Part shown: piece by piece, positions 11,802-33,201 of the stretch
Numbering within the stretch: the stretch's first letter is position 1
Layout: every line of letters starts with the position of its first letter
DNA from: Oscillospiraceae bacterium
Lineage (GTDB): Bacteria > Bacillota > Clostridia > Oscillospirales > UBA644
Direction: 5' to 3'
NCBI GenBank assembly: GCA_015067385.1
Contig: SVMP01000002.1
Span: 1 to 43,612, forward strand
DNA: 43,612 nt
Translations under genes and position numbers: made by a program
Notes under the pieces: model-generated
The model's database searches: none
What the model was told of the DNA's origin: nothing
Seen by the model: only the letters and a program-made list of their open reading frames with translations

Positions 11802-13061
11802 ATGGATATTATAATTAAACCGTCCTCACTCAGCGGCAAAACAGAAGCCATAGGCTCAAAGTCAGACATACACAGACTGCTGATCTGCGCGGCAGTTGCA
11901 AACGAAAAGACAGAAATAGACGGCATCTTTTTTTCCAATGATGTTTTTGCAACATTATCATGCATCAACGCACTCGGAGCAAAAACCGTAATCAATCAAA
12001 ACAGCTGCACTGTTTATCCGATAGAAAAAAGTACCGAGTGTCCGATAATTGATTGCGGAGAAAGCGGTTCAACATTGAGATTTCTTTTGCCGGTCGCATG
12101 TGCGGTAACAGAAAAAGCTGAGTTTGTCGGGAAAGGACGTCTTCCGGAAAGACCGATCGGCGAGCTTATAACGGCGATGTGTTCGGGCGGCGTTAAATTC
12201 AGCGAAGAAAAGCTTCCGTTAAAAACCGAAGGGAAACTTCGTGCAGGGAAATATTATATACCCGGCAATATCAGTTCTCAATATATATCGGGGCTTCTGA
12301 TGGCATTAAGCACGGTTGAAGGCGAAAGCGAGATCATTTTAACATCAAAAACAGAGTCTGTCGGATACATTAACATGACACTGTCTACCCTTTCGATTTT
12401 CGGAGCAGACATAAAGGAAGAAGAAGGACGTTATATTGTAAAAGGAAAAAAAAGACTTATTTCACCGAAGAAAATACGTGTTGACGGAGACTGGTCAAAT
12501 GCAGCTTTCTTTTTAGCCGCAGGTGCCATAGGCGATAAAATAGAAATAGACGGATTAAATATAAACAGCCTTCAGGGTGACAAAGAAATAATCGAGATAC
12601 TTCAACGCTTCGGAGCAGACATTAAAGAAGAAAACGGAACAATAACTGTATCTAAAGGGAAGCTTTGCGGATGCAGGATAGATCTTTCAGACATTCCCGA
12701 CATGCTTCCTGCGCTTGCAGTTGTAGCAGCTTTTGCGGAAGGCGATACGGTATTTACTGGAGCTGCAAGATTACGTTTAAAAGAAAGCGACCGACTTGCA
12801 ACCGTACATAAAATGATAACCGACCTTGGAGGAAAGGCAACAGAATTCGAGGACGGATTGACCGTTCACGGAACAAACAGAGGTCTTACAGGCGGCAAGA
12901 CAGACGGTGCAAACGACCACAGAATAGTTATGGCTGCGGCTATAGCAGCGGCTTTCTGCAAAGAAGAAACGGTTATTACAGGTTGTCAGGCAGTTAACAA
13001 ATCGTACCCGACATTTTTTGATGATATGAAAAAACTCGGAGGGAAAGCAGATGTCATCTAA
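11802..13061 (+). CDS. aroA: 3-phosphoshikimate 1-carboxyvinyltransferase (EPSP synthase)
   Basis: 419-aa ORF with GSKSDIHR, GESGSTLRFL, LRLKESDR and NDHRIVMA motifs. Confidence 0.95.
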   Translation: MDIIIKPSSLSGKTEAIGSKSDIHRLLICAAVANEKTEIDGIFFSNDVFATLSCINALGAKTVINQNSCTVYPIEKSTECPIIDCGESGSTLRFLLPVACAVTEKAEFVGKGRLPERPIGELITAMCSGGVKFSEEKLPLKTEGKLRAGKYYIPGNISSQYISGLLMALSTVEGESEIILTSKTESVGYINMTLSTLSIFGADIKEEEGRYIVKGKKRLISPKKIRVDGDWSNAAFFLAAGAIGDKIEIDGLNINSLQGDKEIIEILQRFGADIKEENGTITVSKGKLCGCRIDLSDIPDMLPALAVVAAFAEGDTVFTGAARLRLKESDRLATVHKMITDLGGKATEFEDGLTVHGTNRGLTGGKTDGANDHRIVMAAAIAAAFCKEETVITGCQAVNKSYPTFFDDMKKLGGKADVI

Positions 13062-14139
13062 ATACGGAAAAACACTGGAAATATCGGTTTTCGGGCAGTC
13101 TCACGGAAAGGCTATCGGTGTTAACATAGACGGACTTCCATCGGGCGAAGAGATCGATATTGAAAAACTTTATGAATTTATGGGCAGGAGAGCTCCCGGA
13201 AAAAGTGACTTTGCGACAAAACGCTCCGAGGCTGATCTCCCTGTTTTCCTATCGGGGATAGAAAACGGTAAAACCTGCGGCTTTCCGATATGTGCGATAA
13301 TTGAAAATAAAGATACACGTTCAACAGACTACGCAGGACTTTCAAAAACGCCTCGTCCGTCTCACGCCGATTACACTGCATTGTTAAGATACGGAGAAAG
13401 CGTTGACCTCAGAGGCGGAGGTCATTTTTCTGGAAGATTGACAGCCCCCCTCTGCATAGCAGGCGGTATCGCAAAGCAGATCCTTGAAAGACGAGGCATA
13501 TATATCGGTGCACAGATATTATCCGTCGGAAAAGAAAATGGCGAAAAATTTCCGTTATACCCTTCAAAAGAACTATTTGACGAGACAGCAAAAAAAGAAT
13601 TGCCGACCGTAAACGATGAATGCGGTAAAAAAATGGCTGAAGTTATACGTCTTGCAGCAAAGGACGCTGATTCCGTGGGCGCAAAAATTGAATGTGCAAT
13701 AATCGGATTGCCTGCAGGAATAGGCTCCCCGATGTTTGACGGTATAGAAAACCGCATCGCTCAGGCAATTTTCGGTATTCCGGCAGTGAAAGGAATAGAA
13801 TTCGGTGCGGGATTCGAATCCGCAGAAATGTTGGGTTCCGAAAACAACGATCCGTTCACCGTAAAAGATGGCGTTATCGTTACGGAAACAAACAATTGCG
13901 GAGGCATTCTCGGCGGTATTTCAAACGGAATGCCGATAGTATTTACAACTGCATTTAAACCCACGCCGTCAATAGGAAAAGAACAGCGTACCGTTGATGT
14001 TAAAACAATGGAAAACACAACTGTTACCGTAAAAGGCAGACACGACCCCTGCATTGCAGTAAGAGCCGTACCTGTTGTTGAAGCGGTTGCGGCAACAGCG
14101 ATTCTCGATATGCTTTTGGAAGAGAGCGAGGTAATATAA
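13051..14139 (+). CDS. aroC: Chorismate synthase
   Basis: 362-aa ORF with FGQSHG, RPSHADY, GGGHFSGR and GRHDPC motifs. Confidence 0.95.
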   Translation: MSSKYGKTLEISVFGQSHGKAIGVNIDGLPSGEEIDIEKLYEFMGRRAPGKSDFATKRSEADLPVFLSGIENGKTCGFPICAIIENKDTRSTDYAGLSKTPRPSHADYTALLRYGESVDLRGGGHFSGRLTAPLCIAGGIAKQILERRGIYIGAQILSVGKENGEKFPLYPSKELFDETAKKELPTVNDECGKKMAEVIRLAAKDADSVGAKIECAIIGLPAGIGSPMFDGIENRIAQAIFGIPAVKGIEFGAGFESAEMLGSENNDPFTVKDGVIVTETNNCGGILGGISNGMPIVFTTAFKPTPSIGKEQRTVDVKTMENTTVTVKGRHDPCIAVRAVPVVEAVAATAILDMLLEESEVI

Positions 14140-15279
14140 ATGGATCTTTCCGAGATCAGAAAAAGAATAGATGAAATAGACGGTAAGCTCCTGCCCCTTT
14201 TTCTTGAAAGAATGAATCTTTCCGCAGAAGTTGCGGCATATAAAAAAGCTCACAATCTGCCTGTTTTAAACAAGGGCAGAGAACGTGAGATTCTGGATCG
14301 TGTGATGAAAGAAAGCGGCGATATGGAGCAGTTTTCGCATCGCCTTTATACGACCATTTTTGAACTCAGCAGGGCATATCAGGAAACATTGAACACAGAA
14401 AGCTCCGAATTGAGTAAAAATATCGAAGAAGCATTAAAAAACAGCCCCGATATGTTCCCCCAAAGTGCAACGGTCGCTTGTCAAGGCGTTGAAGGCGCAT
14501 ATTCACAGATGGCGGCGGACAAGATCTTTCCTCGCGGAAATCTGATGTTTTTCAAGACTTTTGAGGCGGTTTTCGATGCTGTCGAAAGCGGGCTTTGCCG
14601 TTTCGGTGTCGTTCCGATAGAAAACAGTTCAAACGGTTCCGTGAGAGCAACGTACGATCTGTTAAGAACAAAAAATGTAAAGATCGTTAAAAGCGAACGT
14701 CTATGCATTCGCCACGAACTTTTAGCAAAGCCAGGAACAAAACTTGAAGACATAAAAGAGATCAGGTCTCACGAACAGGCGCTCGGTCAATGCAGTGAAT
14801 TTTTAAAGACATTGGGGGCCGATGTTAAAATAACGGCTGTCGCAAACACAGCGATGGCGGCGCAATCCGTTGCAAATAACGATGACAACACGGTTGCGGC
14901 GATCGCATCGCATTCGGGTTGCGAGATCTACGGACTTGTACCTATAAAACAAAACATTCAGAACAGCGACAATAATTACACCAGATTTATCTGCATTTCA
15001 AAGAATACCGAAATTTATCCCGGAGCTAATCGCATAAGTCTTGTTTTAGAATGTGAACATCGCCCGGGAACGCTTTATCAGATACTCGCAAAGCTTGCAG
15101 CGCTTGAGATCGATATACTGAAGCTCGAAAGTTGTCCGATAGTCGGTCACGATTTTGAGTTTATGTTCTTTTTTGAAATCTCGGCAAACGTAAAAGATCC
15201 GAAAACGATCTCAATGCTGGAAAGCCTTAAACGAGACTGCAGAAAACTTATTTTCCTCGGAAACTATTCGGAGAATTAA
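14140..15279 (+). CDS. pheA: Bifunctional chorismate mutase / prephenate dehydratase with a C-terminal ACT domain
   Basis: 379-aa ORF. It has an N-terminal AroQ-type CM helix (IRKRIDEIDGKLLPLFLERM), a PDT core (ACQGVEGAYS...PIENSSNGSV) and an ACT region (ISLVLECEHRPGTLY). Confidence 0.9.
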   Translation: MDLSEIRKRIDEIDGKLLPLFLERMNLSAEVAAYKKAHNLPVLNKGREREILDRVMKESGDMEQFSHRLYTTIFELSRAYQETLNTESSELSKNIEEALKNSPDMFPQSATVACQGVEGAYSQMAADKIFPRGNLMFFKTFEAVFDAVESGLCRFGVVPIENSSNGSVRATYDLLRTKNVKIVKSERLCIRHELLAKPGTKLEDIKEIRSHEQALGQCSEFLKTLGADVKITAVANTAMAAQSVANNDDNTVAAIASHSGCEIYGLVPIKQNIQNSDNNYTRFICISKNTEIYPGANRISLVLECEHRPGTLYQILAKLAALEIDILKLESCPIVGHDFEFMFFFEISANVKDPKTISMLESLKRDCRKLIFLGNYSEN

Positions 15280-16521
15280 ATGGAACAGAAAATATTTGGT
15301 CTTTTAGGACGAAAACTCGGTCATAGTTATTCCGTCCCTATTCACAAGAAGCTCGGAAACGATAAATACAAGCTTTACGAGCTTGAACCCGAACAGCTCG
15401 GCGAATTTATCCGCAGAGAAGATATTGGCGGTTTAAACGTAACGATACCGTATAAAGTTGACGCAATGAAATTCTGCGATGAGATCTCCCCCGAAGCGAT
15501 GGCGATAGGCTCTGTAAACACGATAGTTAACCGCAACGGTAAAGTTTACGGTTATAACACCGATAAATTCGGTTTTTGCCATATGTTAAAACAGGGCGGT
15601 ATCGATGTAAAAGACAAAAAAGTTCTCGTTCTGGGAAGCGGCGGTGCGAGCAAGACAGCGTGCTTCTGCGTAAAAGAACTGGGAGCGAAGAGCCTTTTTG
15701 TTATATCGAGAAGCGGTGAGGACAATTACAACAACCTCGAAAAGCATTACGATGCGGAGATCATAATCAACACGACTCCCGTCGGAATGTATCCTAACAA
15801 CGGTGAGGCGGCTATAGATCTTCGTAATTTCAAAAAGTGTGTCGGCGTTGCGGATATGATATACAATCCTCTGCGTACAAAATTTTTAATGGATGCACAG
15901 GATCTTGGTATTGCGAACATAGGCGGTCTTTCGATGCTCGTGGCTCAGGCAAAAATGGCTGACGAATATTTCTTTGACAGAAAGACTGACGATTCGATAA
16001 TCGGTAAAATAACAGACGAGCTTGCAAAAGACAGCGAAAATATCGTCCTTATCGGAATGCCGGGAAGCGGTAAAACGACTGTCGGCAAAGAGCTTGCGAA
16101 ATTAACGGGAAGAGAGATACTTGAAGCCGACGAAATGATCGTCAAAGCGGCAGGAAGATCCATACCCGAAATATTTGCGGACGGCGGCGAACCTGCGTTC
16201 AGAAAGATCGAAAGCGAGATACTCGAACAGTGCGGCAAGCAGGCAGGTAAAATTATCGTTACGGGCGGCGGTGCTGTTACTGTTGAGAAAAATTACGCTT
16301 ATTTAAAGCAAAACGGCAGGATCTATGAAATAATGAGAGATATCTCTCTTCTTGAAACGGACGGCAGACCGTTATCTAAAGGCAAGGATCTTTCGGAAAT
16401 GTACAAAAAAAGACGTCCAATGTACGATGCATTCAGAGATACTTTCGTTGAAAACAGCACGACCGCAGCAGAAACAGCGGAAAATATTCGGAGGGATTTT
16501 TATGAAAATTCTCGTGATTAA
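15280..16521 (+). CDS. aroE-aroK: Fused shikimate dehydrogenase (aa 1-~245) and shikimate kinase (aa ~253-413)
   Basis: Single 413-aa ORF. The AroE part has LNVTIPYK, NTD and GSGGASK. The kinase part has Walker A GMPGSGKTTVGK and GGGAV. Confidence 0.85.
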   Translation: MEQKIFGLLGRKLGHSYSVPIHKKLGNDKYKLYELEPEQLGEFIRREDIGGLNVTIPYKVDAMKFCDEISPEAMAIGSVNTIVNRNGKVYGYNTDKFGFCHMLKQGGIDVKDKKVLVLGSGGASKTACFCVKELGAKSLFVISRSGEDNYNNLEKHYDAEIIINTTPVGMYPNNGEAAIDLRNFKKCVGVADMIYNPLRTKFLMDAQDLGIANIGGLSMLVAQAKMADEYFFDRKTDDSIIGKITDELAKDSENIVLIGMPGSGKTTVGKELAKLTGREILEADEMIVKAAGRSIPEIFADGGEPAFRKIESEILEQCGKQAGKIIVTGGGAVTVEKNYAYLKQNGRIYEIMRDISLLETDGRPLSKGKDLSEMYKKRRPMYDAFRDTFVENSTTAAETAENIRRDFYENSRD

Positions 16522-16927
16522 CGGCCCGAACATCAATATGCTCGGGATACGCGAACCCGAAATTTACGGTTCAAAGACGTATTCAGACCTCGTTGAACTT
16601 ATAAAAAAAGAAGCCGACAGTCTCGGTGTTGAAGTTAAATTTTTTCAGTCGAACCATGAGGGTGCGATAGTTGACGAGATCCAGCAGGCATACGGCAAAT
16701 TTGACGGCATCGTTATCAATCCTGCTGCGTACACACACACGAGCGTTGCACTTTTGGACGCAGTAAAAGCGGTCGGAATACCGACGGTCGAAGTTCATAT
16801 CTCCGATCCCGACACACGCGATGAATTCAGAAAGATATCGTATATCAGACAGGCGTGCGTGGCGACCGTCAAAGGAAAAGGCTTTGACGGGTATATTGAG
16901 GCGATGAAAATATTGGTAAACAAATAA
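16502..16927 (+). CDS. aroQ: Type II 3-dehydroquinate dehydratase
   Basis: The track ORF is 16352-16927. The likely start is ATG 16502 (MKILVINGPNINMLGIREPEIYG) after GGAGGG. It contains the HISD motif. Confidence 0.9.
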   Translation: MKILVINGPNINMLGIREPEIYGSKTYSDLVELIKKEADSLGVEVKFFQSNHEGAIVDEIQQAYGKFDGIVINPAAYTHTSVALLDAVKAVGIPTVEVHISDPDTRDEFRKISYIRQACVATVKGKGFDGYIEAMKILVNK

Positions 16928-18844: not shown

Positions 18845-19058
18845 GCGTGATACTCTTAACGGAGTATCACGCAACTCTATTCGCCTACGGCGAGTGATAT
18901 TGCGGCAACGGTTACGTTGCAAATGCAGTGATATTTGGCTTTCAGCCAAGTTTTATTTGCTTCGCAAGTTGTTTGCGAATAGAATATCACGAAACCGATA
19001 GGTTTCATATCACTTTTGCAAAGCGAAAATATCACGCTGACTTTAGTCAGCATATCAC
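18845..19058. repeat. Heptamer-punctuated hairpin array, copy 1
   Basis: GTGATAC/GTGATAT at 18847, 18894 and 18928. GTATCAC/ATATCAC at 18864, 18984, 19007, 19029 and 19052. Between them lie 8 different short hairpins: 18845-18872, 18881-18893, 18905-18920, 18935-18949, 18961-18979, 18991-19006, 19014-19028 and 19036-19051. Confidence 0.8.
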
Positions 19059-19074
19059 TTAGCAGACAAAAGAA

Positions 19075-19117
19075 AGAGAAGACTCGTTTACATACGAATC
19101 TTCTCTTTTCTGTTATT
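19075..19117 (+). terminator. Intrinsic terminator closing the FAD-oxidoreductase / array-1 transcript
   Basis: AGAGAAGACTCGT (19075-19087) pairs with ACGAATCTTCTCT (19094-19106) at 12 of 13 bp. TTTCTGTTATT follows. Confidence 0.7.
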
Positions 19118-19245: not shown

Positions 19246-19776
19246 TTATTCTTTTACGGTAACAAGTTCGTCGAAAGCTTTGCGTTTTTTCTCACGGAGC
19301 TTGTCGTTTTCGTTTGCGTAACCGAGAGAAATAACAAGTCTTACAGGCTCGTCAATACCGCAAAGTTTGCGTATCTTTTGATCGTCGAACCAGCCGAGGA
19401 TGCAAGTTGAAAGACCTTGGGCTGTGGCTTCGGCGGTAAGATAAGCGGTTGTGATACCGATATCGATCGAACGGTAGTCGTTGCCCTTTATTTTCGCTCC
19501 GAAAGCGGCTGATTTAACATAAGATTTTTCCGAAACAACTATCATCACGGGAGCATTCTCGGTAAATTTATTCATACCCATGCCCGTTGTTGCAAGCGCC
19601 ACCTGCTTTGCGATATCGTTTTTGCAAACAGTAAAATGATACGGCTGACCGTTACAAGCGGACGGAGCAAGAATTGCGGAACGAAGGATAGCGTCGATTT
19701 TTTCCTGTTCAACAGGACGATCGGGATCGTAATTTCTGCAGGACTGACGATTGAGAGCAATTTCTGTAAAATTCAT
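19246..19776 (-). CDS. Nitroreductase-family protein
   Basis: The track ORF is 19246-19794. The likely start is ATG 19776 (MNFTEIALNRQSCRNY), typical of the nitroreductase N-terminus. Confidence 0.8.
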   Translation of the reverse strand: MNFTEIALNRQSCRNYDPDRPVEQEKIDAILRSAILAPSACNGQPYHFTVCKNDIAKQVALATTGMGMNKFTENAPVMIVVSEKSYVKSAAFGAKIKGNDYRSIDIGITTAYLTAEATAQGLSTCILGWFDDQKIRKLCGIDEPVRLVISLGYANENDKLREKKRKAFDELVTVKE

Positions 19777-19790
19777 AAATAACATCCTTG

Positions 19791-21164
19791 TCAATTGTTT
19801 TCGGGAACAGAGCCGAATTCTCTGACGTGCTTACGGTAAACAAATACGAAAGCCACGAACTGAAGAATAAGCGTAAATGTCCAGGATACAACGTATGAAA
19901 AATAGAGGCATTCGGGAGTATGGAACTGTTCCATACGGAAGATGGTGTAGATCCACGTAATACGGACGCCGCAGACACCGAGGATAGAAATAACCATCGG
20001 GATAAGAGACGAACCCATACCGCGAAGCGCACCCGTAGAAACTTCCATAAGACCGCAGAGGAAGTAAGGCAAGCTTACATAAGCAAGACGGACAAGGCCG
20101 TATTTGATCGCTTCGGGAGAGTCGGTTATATAAATAGAAAGGAGCTGTTCTCCGAAGAAATACGCGAGAAAACCTGTTACTGCGCCAACGACGGTAACGG
20201 AAACCGCACACATCCAAACGATCTTCGAAACACGTTTATACTGTCTTGCACCTGAGTTCTGACCGACAAAATTGACGGTTGTCTGATAAAAAGCATTAAG
20301 ACAAACATAAACAAAGCCTTCAATATTACCGGCTGCGGCATTACCCGACATAAAGATGTCGCCGAAAGAGTTGATAGAAGACTGAATGATTACGTTGGAA
20401 ATAGAGAAAAGCGAACCTTGAATACCTGCGGGAAGACCTATCTGAATGATAAGAAGAAGCTGACGTTTATAAAAACGTATTTTGGAAAGGACGAGCTTGC
20501 TTGCATCCGTTCTGCGCATAAGAGCGATAACAACAAGAACTGCCGAAACACCCTGCGAGATCGTTGTCGCAAGAGCAACGCCTGCAACGTTCATGTTAAA
20601 AACGGTAACAAAAAAGACGTTTAAAACAACATTTACAACACCTGCTATAGACAGGAAGAGCAGCGGGCTTTTTGTATCGCCGACAGCACGAAGGATGGAC
20701 GAACAGAAGTTGTAAATCATTGAGAACGTAATACCGCCGAAATATATCTTCATATAGACAGAGGAAAGCGCAAGAACATTTTCCGGGGTATCCATCATGC
20801 GAAGGAACTCTTCAGAGAAAAGAACGCCAACGAAAGTGAGAACGATACCGCCGACTATAGCAGTCGGAATAGCTGTGTGAACGGTTCTGTGAACCATAAC
20901 ATCGTCTTTGCTTCCGTAAGCTCTCGCAACGGCAACGCCTGCACCTACAGACAAACCTATAAAAAGATTGACTATGAGATTTGTTATCGAGCCTGTTGCT
21001 CCGACAGCGGCGACTGAAACGCTTCCGCAGAATCTGCCGACAATAACAAGGTCAGCCGCATTAAAAAGAAGCTGAAGAATACTCGTAAGAATTATCGGGA
21101 TCGTATATGTAACGATATTTAAAAACAGCGGTCCCTGAAGAATTGAATTGTTTGATCTTGCCAT
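19791..21164 (-). CDS. MATE-family efflux transporter
   Basis: 457-aa polytopic membrane ORF. Its N-terminus (PLFLNIVTYTIPIILTSILQLLFNAADLVIVGRF) is typical of the MATE/NorM family. Confidence 0.9.
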   Translation of the reverse strand: MARSNNSILQGPLFLNIVTYTIPIILTSILQLLFNAADLVIVGRFCGSVSVAAVGATGSITNLIVNLFIGLSVGAGVAVARAYGSKDDVMVHRTVHTAIPTAIVGGIVLTFVGVLFSEEFLRMMDTPENVLALSSVYMKIYFGGITFSMIYNFCSSILRAVGDTKSPLLFLSIAGVVNVVLNVFFVTVFNMNVAGVALATTISQGVSAVLVVIALMRRTDASKLVLSKIRFYKRQLLLIIQIGLPAGIQGSLFSISNVIIQSSINSFGDIFMSGNAAAGNIEGFVYVCLNAFYQTTVNFVGQNSGARQYKRVSKIVWMCAVSVTVVGAVTGFLAYFFGEQLLSIYITDSPEAIKYGLVRLAYVSLPYFLCGLMEVSTGALRGMGSSLIPMVISILGVCGVRITWIYTIFRMEQFHTPECLYFSYVVSWTFTLILQFVAFVFVYRKHVREFGSVPENN

Positions 21165-32780: not shown

Positions 32781-32974
32781 ATTCGAATTTTCGAATAGTT
32801 TTTAGTGATATTCTGTCTTTGACAGAGTGATATTTTCTCTTCGAGAAAGTGATATTGAAACCTTACGGTTTCAGTAATATTATATTCGCCTTAAAACTCG
32901 CGAAGCGAATATCACTTGAACTTTAGTTCAAATATAACTGCGTAGCAATAACACTCGCCGCATGCGAATATAAC
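32781..32974. repeat. Heptamer-punctuated hairpin array, copy 2
   Basis: GTGATAT at 32805, 32827 and 32849, and GTAATAT at 32874. ATATCAC at 32909, ATATAAC at 32932, ATAACAC at 32948 and ATATAAC at 32968. Perfect hairpins lie between them at 32781-32796, 32812-32826, 32834-32848, 32856-32873, 32882-32912, 32916-32931, 32939-32947 and 32955-32967. Confidence 0.8.
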
Positions 32975-32976
32975 TG

Positions 32977-33007
32977 AAAAACCGACTTGTCGAAACAAGT
33001 CGGTTTT
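32977..33007. terminator. Bidirectional intrinsic terminator (tRNA operon on the minus strand, array 2 on the plus strand)
   Basis: AAAACCGACTTGT (32978-32990) pairs with ACAAGTCGGTTTT (32995-33007) around loop CGAA. Confidence 0.8.
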
Positions 33008-33008
33008 C

Positions 33009-33093
33009 TGGTGGGGGAAGGTGGATTCGGACCACCGAAGTCACTGACAACAGATTTACAGTCTGCCCCCTTTGGCCGCTCGGGAATTCCCCC
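33009..33093 (-). tRNA. tRNA-Tyr (anticodon GTA), class II with long variable arm, CCA encoded
   Basis: The reverse complement reads GGGGGAATTCCCGAGCGGCCAAAGGGGGCAGACTGTAAATCTGT...GGTCCGAATCCACCTTCCCCCACCA. The anticodon loop is CTGTAAA. Confidence 0.9.
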
Positions 33094-33126
33094 ATACTAT
33101 TTAGTTGTTTCAGCCGTTAAGACTGG

Positions 33127-33201
33127 TGGAGCTGGTGAACGGAGTCGAACCATCAACCTGCTGATTACAAATCAGCTGCTCTGCCATTGAGCCACACCAG
33201 C
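33127..33201 (-). tRNA. tRNA-Thr (anticodon TGT), CCA encoded
   Basis: The reverse complement reads GCTGGTGTGGCTCAATGGCAGAGCAGCTGATTTGTAATCAGCAGGTTGATGGTTCGACTCCGTTCACCAGCTCCA. It has a 7-bp acceptor stem and anticodon loop TTTGTAA. Confidence 0.9.

Follow-up and report, generated by a model that had tools for sequence, protein, structure and literature searches.

The stretch of DNA analysed here (the window) comprises 43,612 nucleotides of an Oscillospiraceae bacterium (GenBank assembly GCA_015067385.1, contig SVMP01000002.1). Between its convergent FAD (flavin adenine dinucleotide)-oxidoreductase and nitroreductase genes lie eight short near-perfect hairpins (18845–19117, array 1), punctuated by the heptamer GTGATAT on the left and by ATATCAC on the right. 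An original prediction, made from the letters alone, had drawn attention to this pattern, and our analysis confirmed it in the sequence. A second complete copy (array 2) was found at 32805–33008, with + strand heptamers on the left and − strand heptamers on the right, as in array 1. Our investigation showed that both arrays are members of Gut-1, an orphan family already catalogued in Rfam, and that the element is composite and strand-symmetric, consisting of two Gut-1-type arrays of GTGATAT plus hairpin that point towards each other. For the window alone, a striking pattern is thereby explained as a known element.

Two hairpin arrays of the window and their membership in Gut-1

Exact heptamers occur in array 1 at 18894 and 18928 on the + strand and at 18984, 19007, 19029 and 19052 on the − strand; the two arms of the first hairpin are formed by variants agreeing at 6/7 positions, GTGATAc (18847) and Gtatcac (18864). 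The inverted repeats between the heptamers are perfect, with stems of 5–11 bp and loops of 3–6 nt. Six stems of the original prediction are indeed perfect (GCGTGATACTC, TCGCC, GCAACG, TTGGCT, GAAACC and GCTGAC), and TTTTGC/GCGAAA has one G-T pair on the + strand, as claimed. The TTCGCAA stem of the same list proved to be an alternative pairing; the hairpin of the family at this place is TTGC-TTC-GCAA (18957–18967), and TGCGAATAGA (18974–18983) belongs to the centre. GCAACG is present, but not as a separate unit: it is an extra hairpin (18905–18920) nested in the loop of the TGC...GCA hairpin of the family (B2, 18901–18927).

The claimed excess of the heptamer was borne out, with 17 occurrences of GTGATAT in the window against 4.64 ± 2.11 expected, a number reached in 0 of 100 shuffles. 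Six of the 17 lie in array 1 and four in array 2 (32805–32915), and the spacing within the arrays is 22–23 bp. The 280-nt region of array 1 folded with z between −10.3 and −11.3, whichever strand was taken and whether RNA or DNA parameters were used. No base of array 1 differs in the four other metagenome contigs that span it, and the locus recurs in JGI, ENA and Logan metagenome assemblies. One contig (L005, Logan SRR7031497) stops inside the first hairpin, at window position 18869; this fits an element that breaks assemblies or, if the run is RNA, possibly a transcript end.

At the Rfam gathering thresholds (50 bits for RF01706, Gut-1 RNA), the window yielded two tRNAs only. With reporting by E-value, all four half-arrays matched RF01706 over model positions 1–77 of 77. 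The A sides of array 1 (18979–19060, −) and array 2 (32803–32885, +) scored 46.9 bits (E 2.9e-6) and 45.6 bits, and the B sides of array 2 (32904–32976, −) and array 1 (18872–18961, +) scored 34.3 and 34.1 bits. The E-values ranged from 2.9e-6 to 5e-3 for the whole window and the scores lay 3–16 bits under the cut-off, so that a default Rfam scan missed the window copies. Related copies at other loci (given by L numbers) exceeded the cut-off (L034, 63.0 bits; L017, 60.3 bits; L021, 59.2 bits), and in L014 both halves did so on opposite strands (59.2 and 52.0 bits). With these higher-scoring copies the two window arrays can be aligned over their full length. The array thus has a name, where the original prediction had recognised no named family.

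Gut-1 was described from 43 representatives, found in human gut metagenomes only, and was judged a likely non-coding RNA with no function proposed (Weinberg et al. 2010, Genome Biol 11:R31, PMC2864571). Rfam classes it as 'Gene; sRNA' and 'RNA? Y'. The window arrays share with it three tandem covarying hairpins, GUGA(A/U)AU flanks and gut origin, and differ in the heptamer, which is GUGAUAU instead of the consensus GUGAAAU. The original seed alignment already includes GUGAUAU-type members, whose flanks show downstream ATATCAC hairpins. Seed sequences such as BAAZ01000095.1 and BAAZ01025322.1 have the same double-array flanks, in one case with a tRNA and a terminator just upstream. The Rfam model covers one half, whereas the element found here has two convergent arrays, a centre, a long-range repeat and end hairpins; this two-array architecture is not mentioned in the text of Weinberg et al. 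2010 on Gut-1 (PMC2864571). Literature searches on the heptamers, on Gut-1 and on the four-helix-bundle family described below returned nothing beyond that paper. The biological unit of Gut-1 is thus the strand-symmetric double array and not a 77-nt RNA, and a family that had been an orphan since 2010 ('human gut metagenome, no cultivated organism') is now placed in the Oscillospirales of human and ruminant guts.

Architecture, pairing and polarity of the element

A scan of genomes, one per species, for three heptamers spaced 14–18 nt apart returned at least 120 rows. Most of the matches listed were hairpin-type arrays in gut metagenome-assembled genomes (MAGs) of Clostridia/Oscillospirales, and the hosts among them were ruminant and human gut MAGs of Oscillospiraceae, Acutalibacteraceae, Ruminococcus and 'Clostridia bacterium'. 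From a metagenome scan for the centre motif 120 loci were taken, a lower bound. One architecture of roughly 200–330 nt is common to about 190 copies in all, most of them found in gut MAGs of Oscillospirales and in metagenomes, so the search for further copies found the element in many genomes. Sixty-five complete copies could be aligned end to end (alignment A2).

The plan of the family is an A side with three long hairpins and strict heptamers, a centre, a B side and an end hairpin (Table 1). The B side has four short hairpins and degenerate heptamers, in the orientation opposite to the A side. In the 'forward' orientation, which is the + strand for array 2 and the − strand for array 1, the order is ...TTTTA, GTGATAT-A1-GTGATAT-A2-GTGATAT-A3-GTGATAT, then TNTATTCGCC-nnnnAAAC, B4-ATATCAC-B3-ATATCAC-B2-ATATAAC-B1(TCGCC..GGCGA)-ATANAACTG and the end hairpin. 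The centre TNTATTCGCC joins the 3-hairpin A side to the 4-hairpin B side, and the end hairpin is often the terminator of the neighbouring gene. The hairpins are semi-conserved by position (A3 TGAAACC/GGTTTCA, A2 TTTNGC, B2 TGC-GAA-GCA, B1 TCGCC/GGCGA). The strict A-side heptamers are kept in 62–65 of the 65 copies, and those of the B side degenerate to ATA-N-N-AC. In nearly every copy a strong hairpin, often with a T run, directly follows ...AACTG.

Three states of the centre base mark subfamilies with different end hairpins, array 1 being of the 'TCT' and array 2 of the 'TAT' type; read as its reverse complement, the centre gives TANAAT in each of the three. TCT-type copies from different species are closely alike by eye, outer hairpins included (no identity figure was computed). 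The end hairpin of array 1, H0, whose stem holds the heptamer-like GTGATAC, is the terminal hairpin typical of this subfamily and also closes other TCT-type copies, e.g. L017, L060, L064, L106 and L116. The terminator-like hairpin beyond the A side also flanks L017, L044, L106, L114 and L118, and is thus conserved along with the TCT-type element in further species; it is probably the terminator of the nitroreductase gene (19246–19794, −) too. The original prediction had called it a strong + strand terminator. The hairpin and its T run are there, but it is bidirectional and better on the − strand, because a C.A mismatch falls on the + strand. The upstream FAD-oxidoreductase gene and array 1 run in one direction, which makes the proposed location in the 3′ untranslated region of that gene possible.

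Table 1. Positions of the parts of the two arrays in the window.
Feature	Position	Strand	Description
Array 1, end hairpin H0	18845..18872	none	GCGTGATACTC-ttaacg-GAGTATCACGC; inverted repeat of 11 nt, 100% complementary
Array 1, B side	18876..18967	+	TCTATTCGCC end motif, then four short hairpins; Gut-1 match, alignment A2
Array 1, B hairpins	B1 18881-18893, B2 18901-18927, B3 18935-18949, B4 18957-18967	+	
Array 1, B-side separators	18894, 18928; 18950	+	GTGATAT at 18894 and 18928; degenerate GTTTTAT at 18950
Array 1, centre	18968..18990	none	GTTGTT-TGCGAATAGA-ATATCAC
Array 1, A side	18984..19058	-	three longer hairpins between four strict heptamers
Array 1, A hairpins	A3 18991-19006, A2 19014-19028, A1 19036-19051		A3 GAAACC, A2 TTTTGC/GCGAAA, A1 GCTGAC
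Terminator-like hairpin beside array 1	19073..19117	T runs on both strands	AGAGAAGA...TCTTCTCT; 15 pairs on the - strand
Array 2, A side	32805..32880	+	GTGATAT at 32805, 32827 and 32849; GTAATAT at 32874
Array 2, A hairpins	A1 32812-32826, A2 32834-32848, A3 32856-32873	+	A3 TGAAACC
Array 2, centre	32881-32890	-	TATATTCGCC
Array 2, B side (with centre)	32881..32976	-	B4 32898-32908, B3 32916-32931, B2 32939-32947, B1 32955-32967
Array 2, B-side heptamers	32909, 32932, 32948, 32968		after B4 to B1: ATATCAC, ATATAAC, ATAACAC, ATATAAC
Array 2, end hairpin	32977..33008	none	13 nt perfect; bidirectional terminator of the convergent tRNA operon

Analysis of alignment A2 revealed that all 23 of the 23 variable stem pairs (A1–A3 and B4–B2; 363 cells) change on both sides. 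Stem cells were paired in 94.6% of cases, compared with 67% after shuffling and 29–47% in slid controls, and the covariation score was 0.664 against 0.166 for shuffled data; the observed values were reached in 0 of 500 shuffles. RNAalifold recovered the same hairpins. A structured element with hairpins kept by compensatory change is therefore well documented, and we conclude that these hairpins are under selection to pair as single strands.

The element also contains a long-range inverted repeat, formed by the centre (TNTATTCGC) and its complement, GCGAATANA, at the outer end of the B side. In array 1, GCGAATAGA (18975–18983) is complementary to TCTATTCGC (18876–18884), and in array 2, GCGAATATA (32964–32972) pairs with the centre at 32881–32889. 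The variable base of this repeat matches in 60 of 62 copies (A-T 28, T-A 18, C-G 14). The local B1 hairpin is nearly invariant and uses the same GGCGA, so that two alternative pairings exist.

The polarity of the units is fixed and flips at the centre, as the original prediction had noticed for the middle of array 1. On the hairpin-ATATCAC strand the loops are C-GNA-G or GNRA in both halves; the forward-strand loops of the B side were GAA (81), GTA (35), GTAA (12) and GCA (11), and the A side carries their complements. No single strand therefore bears all units in one sense. In the GTGATAT sense, the invariant heptamer ends (UAU...GUG) can extend each hairpin by U.G/A-U/U.G pairs, and several units pass a simple terminator scan (hairpin plus T run). 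About 98% of 1,673 stem pairs are Watson-Crick and about 1.7% are transition mismatches. Among 113 unique copies, wobble pairs were split 18 versus 11 between the strands, which is non-significant; a first count, before deduplication and the addition of 120 metagenome loci, had been 19 to 5 for the ATATCAC strand. The single G-U pair of array 1, offered earlier as a clue to the + strand, is thus uninformative.

Three further features were considered and rejected. A 'ladder' pairing of left GUGAUAU with right AUAUCAC appears in minimum free energy folds of array 1, and was rejected as a conserved feature because the B-side heptamers vary at positions 4–5 without compensation on the invariant A side. 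No flipped state of a B side invertible between 10-bp inverted repeats was found in the approximately 190 copies. The heptamer as an extended −10 box (TGnTAT...), compared by eye on alignment A2, fits some A-side units and the centre and fails for A3 and every B-side unit.

Extra hairpins nested in the loops of unit hairpins were also seen, in the window (18901–18927) and in L010, L052, L087, L106 (3828–4114) and L114. An insert of about 38 nt (TTTTGGAAATAT-CTCGCC..GGCGAG-..CAAAA) recurs in similar form at two different places, in B3 of L052 and in A2 of L106. The sequences suggest that unit-hairpin loops are insertion hot spots. Two tandem copies, 313 nt apart, were present in L255 (4329–4658) and L318 (6906–7235), two metagenome contigs from one sample. 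A second, one-directional class of arrays has 4–6 GTGATAT-hairpin units followed by GTTGnGG and a larger hairpin (L027, L032, L039, L092, L093, L099, L100, L105, L110, L113, L115 and L120). Of these, L099 and L092 scored 69.4 and 63.0 bits for Gut-1, and L039, L099 and L115 lie just upstream of a start codon.

Genomic context and the four-helix-bundle protein gene

Only 3 of 72 copies overlapped an open reading frame (ORF) of at least 110 aa; the copies are otherwise intergenic. The gene neighbouring the B end is convergent in 39 cases versus 19 and usually lies within about 25 nt of the core B end (set at the centre + 135 nt), and at the A end there is no orientation bias. Flanks are almost never homologous between the 72 copies, and tblastn of the proteins flanking the window arrays against 120 loci found no orthologous flank. 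Since flanks are non-homologous although TCT-type copies are alike, the element has been dispersed and not inherited at one locus.

A co-directional tRNA gene lies no more than 120 nt upstream of 24 (22%) of the 111 evaluable copies, with 11 tRNA identities represented, and the L034 copy follows 23S-5S-tRNA. Our analysis thus showed that copies favour the ends of transcription units, especially of stable-RNA operons; both this preference and the dispersal are new for Gut-1. Array 2 itself lies directly after a tRNA operon terminator, the favourite site of the family, in the order tRNA-Thr, tRNA-Tyr (33009–33201), terminator, B side, centre and A side, all on the − strand. A phage origin was rejected, as only 3 of 120 matches listed for a viral/phage collection were hairpin-type arrays.

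We then clustered the ORFs within 4 kb of 143 copies at 137 loci (628 ORFs; loci of up to 15 kb). The top cluster, of 116–119 aa, matched PF05635 ('23S rRNA-intervening sequence protein', E 2.9e-28) and NCBIfam TIGR02436 ('four helix bundle protein', E 6e-32), and was the only recurrent neighbour gene. The closest solved structure of this protein is 2RLD, an uncharacterised protein, and PADLOC gave no match for it. In every case the gene is on the tRNA strand, past the A side, with a −35 box beginning 0–6 nt past the last heptamer and then the −10 box, ribosome binding site and ATG. It follows 12 of 109 strictly defined copies in this one fixed layout, and, in the other direction, a heptamer cluster lay upstream of 17 of the 19 genes of this kind in the loci retrieved. 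Five homologues picked by protein similarity, and also for contigs long enough, all showed the order tRNA operon, terminator, element, promoter and gene, and an array of a divergent subtype (L070) precedes a homologue of 54% identity. Gut-1 arrays are therefore linked to this gene. Examples of gene-linked loci are L367 (9800–10354), L368 (9800–10357), L371 (9840–10357), L374 (860–1413), L012 and L073.

The protein family is very large: among 8,000 candidates scored (sequence clusters at 90% identity), 7,784 reached E ≤ 1e-10, and most of the family matches listed were on contigs of only about 1 kb. In the window, no PF05635 gene or remnant was found, including after array 2, so that both window arrays are 'solo' copies.

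Possible roles of the element

On balance, we consider it probable, if only just, that arrays 1 and 2 are solo copies of a dispersed, conserved multi-hairpin intergenic Gut-1 element of uncultured gut Oscillospirales that acts in cis as single-strand hairpins. A cis role at transcription-unit boundaries may be inferred because copies follow terminators, most notably at the ends of tRNA and rRNA operons, or sit between convergent genes. A polymerase arriving from either side would first meet the GUGAUAU-hairpin sense, in which the units would be weak terminator-like hairpins, lengthened by the U.G/A-U/U.G pairs and followed by AUAUU. As this terminator-like sense would be met first from both sides, the element could be a two-way buffer. 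A two-way transcription buffer or an RNA-end-protecting hairpin array is tentatively the most likely role, though we regard it as doubtful. More speculatively, a protein may recognise the element by its heptamer, the best candidate being the PF05635/TIGR02436 four-helix-bundle protein, whose gene and promoter adjoin the A side in some copies. Like intrinsic bidirectional terminators, the arrays come after stop codons and tRNA genes, and several units and both end hairpins pass the hairpin-plus-T-run scan. They differ from such terminators in their short unit stems (6–7 bp) and poor trailing AUAUU tract, and ordinary terminators have nothing that corresponds to the conserved heptamer, the fixed period or the centre motif.

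Several points weigh against a cis-acting hairpin element of this kind. Its transcription, on whichever strand, is putative, and the tRNA-linked copies follow a good terminator, so that little read-through may arrive. The GNA/GNRA loops lie on the ATATCAC strand, opposite to the terminator-like sense; the wobble count favours neither strand clearly, and the folding z-scores, being alike for both strands and for RNA and DNA, do not discriminate. G.U pairs make up about 1% of variable stem pairs, which would be unusual under an RNA-only constraint and fits DNA-level palindromes. C-GNA-G triloops belong to a type that lends stability to DNA mini-hairpins, d(GCGAAGC) being an example. Together, the near-absence of G.U pairs and these triloops keep a role as single-stranded DNA alive. 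Furthermore, 89% of copies, including both window arrays, have no adjoining four-helix-bundle gene, and that protein, a candidate partner, is itself uncharacterised.

The original Rfam and Weinberg reading, one or more free-standing genes for small, trans-acting structured non-coding RNAs, agrees with the class 'Gene; sRNA', with the strong covariation and with the strong hairpin, often bearing a T run, after ...AACTG in nearly every copy. Such an RNA might run from an internal promoter (A3 arm, last heptamer and centre) to the end hairpin, or two RNAs might diverge from the centre, in which case all GNA/GNRA loops would stand in the sense orientation. A promoter-like TTGAAA-17 nt-TATTAT at 32855–32883 (+) of array 2, made up of just these three parts, and the TANAAT on the reverse complement of the centre in all three subtypes suit this reading, but no promoter-like site was found in array 1, many copies have a poor −35 box or lack it, and for a leftward promoter none was found. 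An RNA of the right arm starting past the −10 box would lose the 5′ half of the covarying long-range stem. Moreover, the halves match one model on opposite strands, so no transcript has all units in one sense; the copies are scattered over unrelated loci, sometimes as tandem pairs (L255, L318), and G.U pairs are nearly absent. We therefore regard an RNA gene as unlikely. A similarly low probability is given to the proposal that the double array is the nucleic-acid partner of the TIGR02436/PF05635 (Avd-like) family, with the protein binding heptamer-flanked hairpins. Gene-linked copies after tRNA operons would then be 'autonomous' and solo copies non-autonomous, in a regulatory or mobile system homing to the 3′ ends of stable-RNA operons. 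The same protein family includes the ORF of 23S rRNA intervening sequences and the Avd proteins of diversity-generating retroelements (DGRs). The intervening sequences resemble gene-linked copies in having a PF05635/TIGR02436 gene by hairpin-rich DNA on a stable-RNA operon, but there the gene lies inside 23S rRNA and here after tRNA operons; no reverse transcriptase or DGR template repeat was seen in the loci inspected. If true, a protein plus hairpin-array system of this kind would be previously unrecognised, and the link, if functional, would give the first role to Gut-1 and to stand-alone Avd-like proteins, with a candidate partner drawn from a very large family.

Slightly less credible still is an element that works or spreads as single-stranded DNA in the manner of repetitive extragenic palindromes (REP) and bacterial interspersed mosaic elements (BIME), with the heptamer as recognition or cleavage handle of some enzyme and solo copies as non-autonomous relatives of the gene-linked copy. 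REP/BIME and REPIN elements, with their REP-associated (RAYT) transposases, occur in Enterobacteria and Pseudomonas. They too are dispersed extragenic palindromes with a short conserved flank, with opposite orientations in one mosaic and a location at gene 3′ ends. Similar copies and flanking hairpins at non-orthologous loci of different species speak for this possibility, as do the nearly pure Watson-Crick stems, the C-GNA-G triloops (TGCGAAGCA being the most conserved B2 hairpin) and the extra hairpins nested in loops (18905–18920; L010, L052, L087, L106, L114). The preference for the neighbourhood of tRNA genes, which are a classic target of mobile DNA, and the occurrence of PF05635 genes in 23S rRNA intervening sequences (from the Pfam family name) also fit. 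However, REP/BIME repeat one palindrome, whereas each unit of the arrays differs and is conserved by position across genomes. No transposase family, Y1/HUH included, emerged when the 628 neighbouring ORFs (loci of up to 15 kb) were clustered, nor was an integrase gene recurrent near the approximately 140 copies. No target-site duplication, empty site or inverted B side was seen; hairpin-type arrays were rare among the phage-collection matches listed, and to our knowledge the four-helix bundle is not a recombinase fold. Very improbable, in our judgement, is an operator- or iteron-like array of double-stranded DNA sites in which GTGATAT is read every two helical turns, regulating the four-helix-bundle promoter and elsewhere serving as decoy or organising sites. 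The 22–23 bp period, the almost invariant A-side heptamers and the last heptamer abutting the −35 box would suit it, but a reader of duplex DNA would not need compensated palindromic spacers or polar loops, and 89% of copies are not beside that promoter. We give next to no credence to an inverse-CRISPR-like memory array, as which the original prediction had described array 1 with its 'variable palindromic spacers', or to a chance cluster of palindromes. Short constant punctuation and differing palindromes within one array do recall the former, but the hairpins are homologous position by position across species (TGAAACC/GGTTTCA, TGC-GAA-GCA), array 1 is identical in every metagenome contig covering it, there is no cas-like or acquisition context, and chance is excluded by the heptamer enrichment and folding statistics. 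The description given in the original prediction was thus accurate, and its interpretation is partly supported.

Comparison with other repeat systems gave no match either. A CRISPR array proper was rejected, since the constant part is only 7 nt, the spacers are palindromic and conserved from one species to another, and the array is identical in four other contigs; no cas genes were found among the ORFs scanned against Pfam. The period of 22–23 bp fits plasmid-type iterons, which were rejected on the 7-nt constant part, the inversion of units at the centre and the housekeeping neighbours. RNA arrays of type III toxin-antitoxin systems (ToxI-like) were rejected as well, because the units are non-identical and the downstream genes are unrelated or PF05635, for which PADLOC also gave no match in this comparison.

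Regarding the window at large, the cumulative GC skew rises to about 18–28 kb and then falls, and the long genes change from mostly + to mostly − strand near 29 kb. The window may therefore span a replication terminus or another skew switch. A fork-trap or replication-terminus reading of the arrays was set aside because each array has both orientations. Upstream of the FAD-oxidoreductase gene, at 11802–16927, an aromatic amino-acid biosynthesis cluster was identified, with genes for chorismate synthase, chorismate mutase/prephenate dehydratase, a fused shikimate dehydrogenase-kinase and type II dehydroquinase, which is an ordinary housekeeping context.

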